The notes under the pieces: generated by a model
Told to the model about the DNA's origin: nothing
The model's database searches: none
What the model saw: only the letters and a program-made list of their open reading frames with translations
Shown: one piece after another, positions 26,633 through 27,505 of the stretch
How positions within the stretch are numbered: position 1 is the first letter of the stretch
Layout of the letters: every line of letters begins with the position of its first letter
From: a virus
Taxonomy: Duplodnaviria; Heunggongvirae; Uroviricota; Caudoviricetes
Length of the DNA stretch: 64,000 nt
Virus record (IMG/VR): IMGVR_UViG_2684623133_000001
Span: 1 to 64,000 of that record
Reading direction: 5' to 3' (one strand)
Made by a program: the position numbers and the translations under genes

Positions 26633-26751
26633 GACGTGAACAGAATGCAGGTCGGTTATCTCGGGGTACGCCCCCGTAGTTCAAGTTAGAACGCCCCGAG
26701 CCAAGCGGGGAAATGGAGCCAAACCCGTCCAGCGCCAACCACGTTCACGTC
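26633..26751 (+). ncRNA. Y-RNA-like repeat unit 1 (divergent; no clear tRNA-like module)
   Basis: 5' GACGTGAAC pairs with 3' GTTCACGTC. Shares the GCAGGTCGGTTATC motif with the other units. Internal long stem CTCGGGG...CCCCGAG. Confidence 0.4.
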
Positions 26752-26780
26752 ACTCCCAGACCACAACTACATAGAAACCA

Positions 26781-26921
26781 GATGGTGCGAGCAGGACGCA
26801 GGTCGGTTACCACTTGTAATGGAGAGGTCGCGGGTTCGAGTCCCGCCAGCCAGCCCCCGGCTGTAGCTCAGTTGGCAGAGCGCTAAACCCCGGTCAGCAC
26901 ACACACGTTCGCCCCATCACC
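26781..26921 (+). ncRNA. YrlA-like Y RNA unit 2 with permuted tRNA-like module
   Basis: Terminal helix GATGGTGCGAGC with GTTCGCCCCATC. T-arm GCGGGTTCGAGTCCCGC. Acceptor-like stem CAGCCAG/CCGGCTG capped by a CCC loop. D-arm TAGCTCAGTTGGCAGAGCGC. CCGGTCAGCAC motif. Confidence 0.6.
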
Positions 26922-26940
26922 CAACACAACTCCATGCACA

Positions 26941-27080
26941 GCACGGTGTGAACAGGACTTCGTTCGGTTATCTCCTTTCCTGAGAGAGACGCGGGTTCGA
27001 ATCCCGCCAGCCACGAAAGTGGTTGTAGCTCAGCGGCCTAGAGCGCTAAACCCGGACGAAACCCACACGCTCACACCACC
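26941..27080 (+). ncRNA. YrlA-like Y RNA unit 3 with permuted tRNA-like module
   Basis: GGTGTGAAC pairs with GCTCACACC. Hairpin TCTC-CTTTCCT-GAGA. T-arm GCGGGTTCGAATCCCGC. 7-bp acceptor stem CAGCCAC/GTGGTTG closed by a GAAA tetraloop. D-arm TAGCTCAGCGGCCTAGAGCGC. Confidence 0.65.
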
Positions 27081-27104
27081 TCAAACACCAGCAGACGCAT
27101 GCGC

Positions 27105-27245
27105 GCAGGCGGTGTGGACAGGACGCAGGTCGGTTACCAAAACAGTCAGGTGTGGGTTCGAGCCCCACCACCTCGCTCGCGGGGTGTAGCCCAATTGGTA
27201 GAGGCAATTGTCCACATACGCCGGTCAGCACCCCACACGCCCACG
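27105..27245 (+). ncRNA. YrlA-like Y RNA unit 4 with permuted tRNA-like module
   Basis: GGCGGTGTGG pairs with CCACACGCC. T-arm GTGGGTTCGAGCCCCAC. 7-bp acceptor stem CACCTCG/CGGGGTG closed by a CTCG loop. D-arm TAGCCCAATTGGTAGAGGC. CCGGTCAGCAC motif. Confidence 0.6.
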
Positions 27246-27275
27246 CCACCTACGCGCACGCACGACAGACAACCC

Positions 27276-27397
27276 GATGTGAACAGGAAGCTCGGTCGGT
27301 TATCACTCAATTGGTTAATGCAGGTTCAATCCCTGTCGCCTGCACCTAGTGCGGGTGTAAAAGCGAAATCCCGGTCAGCACACTCACGTTCACATCA
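27276..27397 (+). ncRNA. Y-RNA-like repeat unit 5 (degenerate tRNA-like elements)
   Basis: GATGTGAAC pairs with GTTCACATC. D-loop-like CAATTGGTTAATG. T-loop-like GCAGGTTCAATCCCTGT. CCGGTCAGCAC motif. Confidence 0.45.
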
Positions 27398-27414
27398 CCC
27401 GCCCAATAGCCCAC

Positions 27415-27505
27415 GCGGGTGGCACGAGCAGGATCGCAGTCGGTTACCCCACCCCTCGCAAGGATGACGAACCCCGGCAGCCCTTCACACGTTCGCGCCG
27501 CCCGC
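27415..27505 (+). ncRNA. Y-RNA-like repeat unit 6 (short; abuts the rsr ribosome-binding site)
   Basis: GCGGGTGGCACGAGC pairs with GTTCGCGCCGCCCGC. GCAGTCGGTTACC motif. Confidence 0.4.

Follow-up and report, generated by a model that had tools for sequence, protein, structure and literature searches.

A tandem array of six probable YrlA/YrlB-class Y RNAs upstream of rsr in a cluster MabK prophage

Particles of Ro60 and Y RNA form a conserved RNA quality-control system. In a stretch of viral DNA of 64,000 nucleotides (IMG/VR record IMGVR_UViG_2684623133_000001, positions 1 to 64,000; hereafter the window), six head-to-tail units lie at 26633-27499 on the + strand, directly upstream of rsr (27529-29244), which encodes a Ro60 orthologue. 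Very probably, the six units are bacterial Y RNAs of the YrlA/YrlB class, which form one cassette together with rsr and a small gene for a helix-turn-helix (HTH)-like protein in a prophage of cluster MabK. Chen et al. (2014, RNA 20:1715; PMC4201824) reported YrlA-like RNAs adjoining Ro from 254 bacteria and 22 phages. The array is an unannotated member of this known kind, expanded in copy number, and the locus adds a well-defined example in the prophages of a clinical pathogen.

The interval 26500-29300 shares 96% identity with Mycobacterium phage prophiGD43A-5 (MW584167) and 95% with prophiT37-1 (OQ417969). Both belong to cluster MabK and reside as prophages at attB-1 of Mycobacterium abscessus (PMC8092301, PMC9934374); M. 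abscessus strain GD43 carries the first of these sister prophages. The two papers on MabK prophages make no mention of Ro or of Y RNAs.

The array, its fold and the adjoining Ro60 gene

The units, whose coordinates are given from helix end to helix end (Table 1), are located 29-896 nt upstream of rsr, all on the + strand, with a regular spacing of ~150-165 bp and A/C-rich spacers of 24-34 nt between them. In all six, a 5′ nonamer pairs with a 3′ nonamer over nine positions with 0-1 mismatch, thereby creating a terminal helix (for example, GGTGTGAAC with GCTCACACC, and GACGTGAAC with GTTCACGTC). Two internal motifs, also found in all six, are the two strands of a second helix of 9 bp, here called helix 2 (GCAGGTCGG with CCGGTCAGC; core TCGG/CCGG). 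Each unit contains one copy of the element TCGGTTAYC, on the + strand; these six are the only ones in the window, where shuffles give 0.65. A repeat search of the window recovers the repeat families.

An earlier reading by a model that saw only the letters and a list of open reading frames (the sequence-only reading) had proposed six tandem Y-RNA-like units upstream of a Ro60 gene, with complementary ends and two conserved internal motifs. All of this has stood: the six copies of TCGGTTAYC, the Pfam and PDB matches of the Ro60 protein and the YrlA matches of U2-U4 (see below) bear it out, and the two motifs, which are real, turn out to pair with each other. Its dimensions were nearly right: the unit size of 90-140 nt holds for every unit except U6 (79 nt), the spacers had been put at 20-30 nt, and its 23 nt between the last unit and rsr are correct from the end then taken, 27505, and become 29 nt from the helix end at 27499. 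It had also seen no believable open reading frame in the array, and those that overlap the interval (43-126 aa) have no match in Pfam or PHROG.

Table 1. Features of the window, with positions counted from its first nucleotide
Feature	Position	Strand	Description
tRNA genes	1181-1393		two genuine tRNA genes, Ser-gct and Arg-acg, near the left end of the window
BrnT-like toxin and antitoxin	25657-26108	-	toxin of 83 aa; PHROG 36779, E 4e-34 for the toxin
Possible open reading frame	26196-26531	+	111 aa; signal-peptide-like start (MKSLYVKRIAVIGAAIAALTVLPTATASA), Gly/Ser-rich tail
Putative SigA-type promoter	26576-26603	+	-35 TTGCAG (26576-26581), 16-nt spacer, -10 TATAGC (26598-26603)
Dyad	26587-26602		16 bp, CTATACCGCGGTATAG; probable operator; spans promoter spacer and -10
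U1	26633-26751	+	119 nt; terminal helix, helix 2 with two mismatches, three central hairpins
U2	26784-26915	+	132 nt; archetypal YrlA type
U3	26945-27076	+	132 nt; YrlA type
U4	27111-27247	+	137 nt; YrlA type
U5	27276-27396	+	121 nt; T arm and stem
U6	27421-27499	+	79 nt; minimal, YrlB-like, adjoins rsr
rsr	27529-29244	+	Ro60 orthologue, 571 aa; GTG start; Pfam, PDB and PHROG matches
Small gene	29251-29481	+	76 aa; immediately after rsr; HTH-like C-terminus (WTYxxLAxAVGCSPELIAxI)

The units differ in the central module that the two stem helices enclose. In U2, a V hairpin precedes the T arm (GCGGG-TTCGAGT-CCCGC); then come an acceptor-like stem, which is 5 bp long or, with one mismatch tolerated, 7 bp, and the D arm (GCTC-AGTTGGCA-GAGC). 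U3 has a V hairpin, a T arm, a 7-bp acceptor-like stem with a GAAA cap, and a D arm; in U4, the T arm (GTGGG-TTCGAGC-CCCAC) is followed by an acceptor-like stem (7-8 bp) and by a D arm of reduced length. All three retain the T-loop TTCGA and the D-loop GG, which are the elements that form the elbow of a tRNA. In U5, the T arm (GCAGG-TTCAATC-CCTGT) and a 9-bp stem are followed by no D arm, and a D-loop-like CAATTGGTTAAT is located 5′ of the T arm. The three central hairpins of U1 are without tRNA-like features, and U6 consists of the two stem helices and a 30-nt loop.

Covariation in three elements, namely terminal helix, helix 2 and T stem, was analysed in a MAFFT alignment of 13 units (the six of the window, three from mycobacteriophage ET08, two from Farewell and two from Myrna). 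In this alignment, 86.9% of cells are paired, versus 72.9% with shuffled partners and 33-43% with slid partners, and there are 15 pairs, out of 23, in which both sides have changed. From it, a covariance model, R1, was built and used to align 150 non-seed relatives, and in this second alignment (A3), which is fitted to R1 and is therefore biased towards the structure, 93.6% of cells are paired, with compensatory changes at 21 of 23 pairs (637 cells) and none of 500 shuffles as good. As an independent check, RNAalifold was run on a plain MAFFT alignment of 16 YrlA-type units, which gave 34 pairs, 25 of them with compensatory change: 7 in the terminal helix, 8 in helix 2, 3 in the V hairpin, 5 in the T stem, 7 in the acceptor-like stem and 4 in the D stem. 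For U3, the minimum free energy (MFE) has a z-score of -4.45, and none of 200 shuffles folds as well. The terminal helix, whose covariation the sequence-only reading had itself named as the decisive check, and helix 2 are thus supported by covariation. An energy scan with RNAduplex, of the 5′ arm against downstream sequence, had been set aside in favour of the covariance model, as chance motif matches in DNA of 64% G+C scored like the real units.

Within the window, R1 finds only the six units (seed sequences, 56.7-123 bits), the next matches being real tRNAs at E 0.29 and 0.69. It was also applied, at E <= 1e-3, to 169 Ro loci (GenBank phage records, 9; GTDB genomes, 80; IMG/VR contigs, 80), with Ro oriented + and about 1.2 Mb in total (L-numbers below denote these and related Ro loci; L001 is MW584167 and L003 is prophiT37-1). 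Every one of the 421 matches in these loci has the orientation of Ro, and most lie no more than 1.1 kb upstream of it. The compensatory changes, which preserve pairing while the sequence shifts, are a mark of selection on RNA. The regular spacing and the invariant 9-mer would also suit repeats that act at the level of DNA, as iterons or repeated protein-binding sites; given the compensatory changes and the strict strand-specificity of the association, the probability of this is next to nil.

The start codon of rsr is preceded, at a distance of six bases, by a Shine-Dalgarno sequence AAGGAG (27517-27522). Its protein matches the Pfam domains TROVE (5e-46) and vWA_Ro60 (2e-63), the PDB entries 2NVO (D. 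radiodurans Rsr, 9e-103) and 1YVP (X. laevis Ro60, 5e-100), as well as 9NEN, and PHROG 850 (9e-106). At residues ~213-245 (KVQPLTAEQLKAGERNAS...NVELVVDHPL), it has an insertion of 28-33 residues, which is absent from at least 5 of 7 other aligned phage Ro proteins and, by this comparison, appears to be lineage-specific.

Class, copy number and age of the units

In a permissive local search with the Rfam YrlA model (RF02553), matches were obtained for U2 (37.6 bits, E 2.5e-6), U3 (28.9 bits, E 8e-4) and U4 (28.5 bits, E 1e-3, over the whole model, positions 1-114), and none for U5. The Rfam alignment covers model positions 24-84, i.e., the permuted tRNA-like module. The proposal of the sequence-only reading to search with Rfam models was borne out for YrlA, at sub-threshold scores, and failed for the metazoan Y_RNA model RF00019, which has no match up to E = 10 in 26400-27700.

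All six units lie within 4 kb of a Ro60/TROVE gene and on its strand, which was the search criterion of Chen et al., and all six have the long stem of YrlA that arises from the pairing of the 5′ and 3′ ends. The permuted order of YrlA (T arm, acceptor-like stem, D arm, with T-loop TTCRA and D-loop GG) is found in U2, U3 and U4. U1 and U6 are without a tRNA-like module and U5 has the T arm and stem only; U1 and U6 are therefore not YrlA in the strict sense. U6 has the features of the YrlB type, whose members are short, lie between YrlA and rsr, and have a Ro-binding stem but no full tRNA-like module; no sequence family of this type exists for comparison. Short U6-like units adjoin rsr in most arrays and match U6 best (Farewell, ET08, L010, L015 and L098-L107).

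The published putative Ro-binding motif, on the 5′ strand, is GNCGAAN0-1G (Chen et al. 2014, PMC4201824). The homologous columns in the window read GCAGGA (U2, U6), ACAGGA (U3, U4, U5) and ACAGAA (U1), none of which matches all five specified positions. The same columns in the 150 relatives are G-C-(C 122 / A 26)-G-(G 102 / A 38)-A. At the fifth position, 102 relatives have G (consensus GCCGGA) and only 38 the published A (GCCGAA); at the third, 26 share the A of the window. Judging from this alignment, the literal GNCGAA is not retained by most actinobacterial members, and the element in the window would be a lineage variant at the right place. The 5′-end motif pointed out earlier (..AACAGGA) accordingly has the position of the published motif and a different sequence.

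The tRNA-like modules raise the question of whether the interval is a decayed array of tRNA genes. ARAGORN calls a tRNA-Thr(tgt) at 26778-26856, gene 51 of GenBank record MW584167 is annotated as tRNA-Thr, and many Ro-encoding phages have real tRNA arrays near Ro. Against tRNA pseudogenes, the Rfam tRNA model RF00005 has no match in the interval at its gathering score, the ARAGORN call turns into tRNA-Arg(tct) or vanishes in near-identical relatives and has its anticodon at position 38-39, the arms come in the permuted order of YrlA, T before D, and the parts that are conserved and covary are non-tRNA stems. Such decay is therefore exceedingly improbable.

Two tRNA-like signals in the sister prophages can be placed on the units. 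The ARAGORN tRNA-Thr (L001 6279-6357) corresponds to the 5′ half of U2, i.e., the V hairpin and T arm, and the GenBank tRNA-Thr of prophiGD43A-5 is probably a misannotation. In prophiT37-1 (L003 3359-3516), the Rfam tRNA model scores 40.3 bits on 158 nt that start in one YrlA-type unit and end in the next, which may echo the proposed origin of YrlA from a dimeric tRNA transcript.

A related possibility is that the RNAs have a Y-RNA-like fold and a main role that is independent of Ro60, as tRNA mimics or decoys, for example against tRNA-targeting nucleases or toxins of the host or the prophage. This would account for the full T/D elbow and acceptor-like stem of U2-U4, for the BrnT-like toxin gene 0.5 kb upstream and for the V hairpin. 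In U2-type units (26810-26823 in the window), this hairpin has the form CCA-CUUNUAA-UGG, with a 7-nt loop like that of an anticodon (U at position 2, 3′ AA). The loop is CUUGUAA in U2, and its central bases differ among the relatives L098, L106, L013, L045, L120 and L133 (TGT, TCT, TTG, TTT, ATT). What speaks against decoys is that the linkage to Ro60 on the same strand is without exception in the 421 matches, that invariant stem elements foreign to tRNA (TCGGTTAYC, TCGG/CCGG) are kept even in units without a tRNA-like part, and that the toxin-antitoxin pair is missing from most other arrays. We regard a role as decoys as very unlikely.

The number of units varies widely among Ro loci (Table 2), and counts for distant taxa are underestimates, because R1 derives from mycobacteriophage units. 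ET08-type phages have three units, and Farewell, Sparky and Myrna have two. The seven-unit arrays are located at L096 1929-2974 and L125 685-1678, and two further arrays came to light in a separate motif scan of IMG/VR, one of six units (L171, 5106-5992) and one of nine directly upstream of a Ro gene (L175, IMGVR_UViG_3300048999_000166, 344-1681, - strand). Thus, six copies are at the upper end of a continuum, and, across the ~180 Ro60 loci surveyed, tandem arrays of dissimilar paralogues are the rule in actinobacteria and their phages. The sequence-only reading had called six copies an unusual dosage, which does not hold, as arrays of two to five are common and arrays of seven and nine occur. 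The literature examined describes two Y RNAs per locus, whereas the arrays reach six to nine in phages; no description of more than two was found in that literature, outside of which are the key reviews and the supplement of Chen et al. 2014.

Table 2. Number of R1 units per Ro locus
Units per locus	GTDB (of 80)	IMG/VR (of 80)	Remarks
0	13	11	
1	11	7	
2	34	16	
3	16	12	
4	6	12	
5	0	10	
6	0	7	MabK family of the window
7	0	2	L096, a MabK relative; L125, a short metagenomic contig
Unplaced	0	3	some matches partial

In a few phages, Y units lie downstream of Ro (L158 4765-5373, L165 4600-4968, L005 5383-5872), and in Gordonia phage Forza they are found among tRNA genes, so that placement upstream of rsr is usual and not obligatory. 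The downstream loci bear on a further alternative, namely a role in cis alone: the repeats would be a long structured 5′ leader of the rsr mRNA (perhaps with Ro60-binding decoy sites that feed back on rsr translation or stability) and would never be released as separate RNAs. All units of the window are indeed on the rsr strand, the last one is separated from the start codon by nothing except the Shine-Dalgarno sequence within 29 nt, and no terminator-like site was found between the array and rsr. A leader is, however, impossible for the downstream arrays, the spacers evolve much faster than the units, and the homologous RNAs of M. smegmatis accumulate as discrete Rsr-bound species from one precursor (PMC4201824). 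Action in cis alone is unlikely, and the four rival explanations (DNA-level repeats, tRNA pseudogenes, tRNA decoys and cis leader) have, even when taken together, only a small share of the probability.

The window paralogues are 39-75% identical to each other. In the L098/L101 prophages, the best matches of U2, U5 and U6 are 88%, 90% and 81% identical and occur in the same order (the U5 orthologues in L098 and L101 are 89-90% identical), despite a nucleotide identity of rsr to L098 and L101 of only 75-77%. In comparison with L098 and L101, the units have 69-90% identity and the spacers 34-65%. Thus, the units are under purifying selection. Orthologues being more alike than paralogues, and the order having been kept, the paralogues are old and have been individually maintained, which argues for distinct roles over decay. 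The YrlA-type units of Farewell (79%) and ET08 (73%), as well as L098.2 (88%), all have U2 as their nearest counterpart in the window. U1, which is a seed sequence of R1 and scores 67.4 bits with it, is 97% identical to its counterpart in L096 and 71% identical to a unit in L010. On these sequence comparisons, U5 and U6 would be distinct conserved types and not degenerate copies, with U1 less widely conserved. The sequence-only reading had regarded units 1, 5 and 6 as degenerate and had taken this to suggest functional diversification. Degeneracy can be dismissed, given the 90% and 81% identity of the U5 and U6 orthologues alongside ~76% for rsr and the short U6-like unit beside rsr in most arrays; diversification is supported, on the different ground that the paralogues are distinct and long maintained.

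Promoter, candidate operator and neighbouring genes

Upstream of the first unit, a dyad with the pattern CTRTA-N6-TAYAG overlaps a putative promoter (Table 1). This pattern is unique in the window, where 0 are expected, and has 30 matches in the 1.2 Mb of Ro loci, one per locus, versus 1.6 expected; 29 of the 30 are just upstream of the first Y unit, and near-variants are present in other loci. In aligned relatives, a conserved TTG precedes the dyad by 5-7 nt, and the right half-site with an added T reads as a -10 element, TACAGT, which results in promoters of the form TTGNNN, 16-18 nt, TACAGT (e.g. L120, TTGACA-18-TACAGT; L123, TTGACG-17-TACAGT). The distance from the -10 to the first Y unit is 6-8 nt in five phage contigs. 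Because of the fixed distance to the -35 TTG, the identity of the half-site with the -10 and the start of the Y unit 6-8 nt further on, the dyad is read as an operator, and, being within the promoter, it would not be transcribed. A terminator scan had listed the dyad, the centre of which is often YNCG; its interpretation as an RNA hairpin or intrinsic terminator was rejected in favour of an operator inside the promoter.

The small gene that follows rsr has homologues after Ro in 49 of the 169 loci, among them 29 of the 30 in which the dyad occurs. Its protein has a weak, sub-cutoff match to Pfam HTH_31 (E 8e-4), its homologue in Farewell, gp37, carries the annotation of an HTH DNA-binding protein, and 15 of 25 members of the family have weak Pfam matches to MRP-L20 (mL58). 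A profile of the family gave insignificant matches only against PDB sequences, and a single-sequence AlphaFold2 model, with one long and one short helix and a predicted local distance difference test (pLDDT) score of 50-70 in the C-terminal part, was uninformative. The protein can be seen as a candidate regulator of the cassette, and we infer from the sequences that promoter-operator, Y RNA array, rsr and regulator may constitute an autoregulated cassette. The conserved dyad and the linked HTH-like gene suggest how actinobacterial rsr operons, which are without the RtcR control of Salmonella, might be regulated.

The BrnT-like toxin-antitoxin pair, ~0.5 kb upstream of the array, runs against the direction of its neighbours. 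Dedrick et al. (PMC8092301) describe this pair as sitting "within early lytic genes" and report that most prophage genes are silent in lysogens. Between the toxin gene and the Y RNA promoter lies the possible 111-aa open reading frame, which is unannotated in MW584167 and has no match in Pfam or PHROG. The cassette has a self-contained look, with a putative promoter of its own, and occurs also in unrelated phages and in bacterial chromosomes. Despite this, its earlier label as a moron is not established, as it lies among early lytic genes (PMC8092301).

Proposed mechanism and relation to known systems

Several points weigh against YrlA/YrlB-class RNAs in one cassette. No unit attains the Rfam YrlA gathering score of 69 bits, nor does any Rfam family attain its own in the interval; in the same kind of local search, the YrlA of phage ET08, which is a named example in Chen et al. 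2014, itself scores 37.4 bits, and thus the threshold excludes accepted actinophage members. The replacement of GNCGAA by RCAGGA (ACAGAA in U1) means that binding of Ro60 is not guaranteed. To these can be added the bias of the alignment of 150 relatives, MFE z-scores of single units that are unremarkable in U2, U4 and U6, a -10 in the window (TATAGC) without the conserved final T, and a consensus promoter scan that found no promoter at the window array. By analogy with the systems described below, the six RNAs most likely bind this Ro60.

A mechanism can be proposed from M. smegmatis, D. radiodurans, Salmonella and phage phiLo. The array and rsr would be co-transcribed from the SigA-type promoter at ~26576-26603, with the 16-bp dyad in its spacer and -10, and the precursor would, as in M. 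smegmatis, be cut in the A/C-rich spacers to give discrete RNAs of 80-140 nt. In each RNA, the terminal helix, an internal loop with RCAGGA, and helix 2 (TCGG/CCGG) form one long stem, a fold that covariation bears out; by homology, this stem would attach to the Ro60 ring from outside, on its outer surface. The variable distal module would then be the effector end, which could gate the Ro60 cavity and tether Ro60 to partners, e.g. host PNPase. The tRNA-like elbow and 5-8-bp acceptor-like stem of U2-U4 could be recognized by RNase P, the CCA-adding enzyme, TruB and Dus, and U1, U5 and U6 would present different or minimal modules. Six dissimilar paralogues, kept over a long time, probably provide several alternative adaptors for one Ro60, rather than more of the same RNA.

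A bolder version, which we put forward as a doubtful possibility, is that the adaptors are interchangeable and each paralogue takes Ro60 to a different host partner or substrate class (PNPase; enzymes of tRNA processing or modification for the tRNA-like units; other factors for the modules of U1 and U5), that operator and HTH repressor act as a switch, and that the expansion to 5-9 units in phages and prophages reflects an arms race over host RNA metabolism or tRNA-targeting defences. If each paralogue does recruit a different partner, the array would be a compact handle on the effector ends of bacterial Y RNAs.

Of the known systems, YrlA and YrlB of M. smegmatis are located upstream of rsr, arise from one precursor and are bound by Rsr, and YrlA is cut by RNase P and receives CCA (PMC4201824). 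They share with the window the actinobacterial lineage, the position on the rsr strand and the long stem from both ends; YrlA resembles U2-U4 in its T arm, acceptor-like stem of ~7 bp and D arm, and the second, shorter Y RNA likewise lies between YrlA and rsr. The differences are that M. smegmatis has two RNAs and the motif GNCGAA, whereas the prophage has six (three of full YrlA type and three with other module types) and RCAGGA on the 5′ strand. Mycobacteriophage ET08 (cluster C1), one of the 22 phages of Chen et al. 2014, has RNAs of the same family directly upstream of its Ro, including the unit to which U2 is 73% identical. By R1, it has three units (short-YrlA-short) versus six in the window, and it retains GGCCGA(A/G); it has only an imperfect version of the dyad, and a homologue of the small HTH-like gene was looked for there and not found.

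In Salmonella Typhimurium, YrlA and YrlB (RF02553) are encoded in the rsr-rtcBA operon. Like the RNAs of the window, these two Y RNAs beside rsr are modular, with a Ro-binding stem and a tRNA-like effector domain in which the T arm is 5′ of the D arm. That locus is under sigma-54/RtcR control and linked to the RNA repair genes RtcB and RtcA, whereas the window has a SigA-like promoter with a dyad and no rtc genes; unlike those of Salmonella, the actinobacterial RNAs possess a further helix (TCGGTTAYC/CCGG), and their scores are far under the Rfam threshold. In Deinococcus radiodurans, Yrn1, Yrn2 and other small RNAs (four in all, two of them classed as Y RNAs) also lie in tandem upstream of rsr, and the tethering of Rsr to PNPase by Yrn1 is the mechanistic model applied here. 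According to Chen et al., they are an independent lineage; the order of T and D arms differs, and both strands of their Ro-binding helix are conserved. Finally, the Ro60 of Thermus phage phiLo binds the two Yrl RNAs that are encoded upstream of it, and ternary complexes that include host PNPase arise in vitro (NAR 2025, PMC12135203). This phage has two RNAs (Yrl1 and Yrl2), identified by a CGAA motif, in contrast to the window; like the window, it has a phage-encoded Ro60 with Y-like RNAs directly upstream, and thus supports the recruitment of PNPase by ribonucleoproteins of phage Ro60 and Y RNA.

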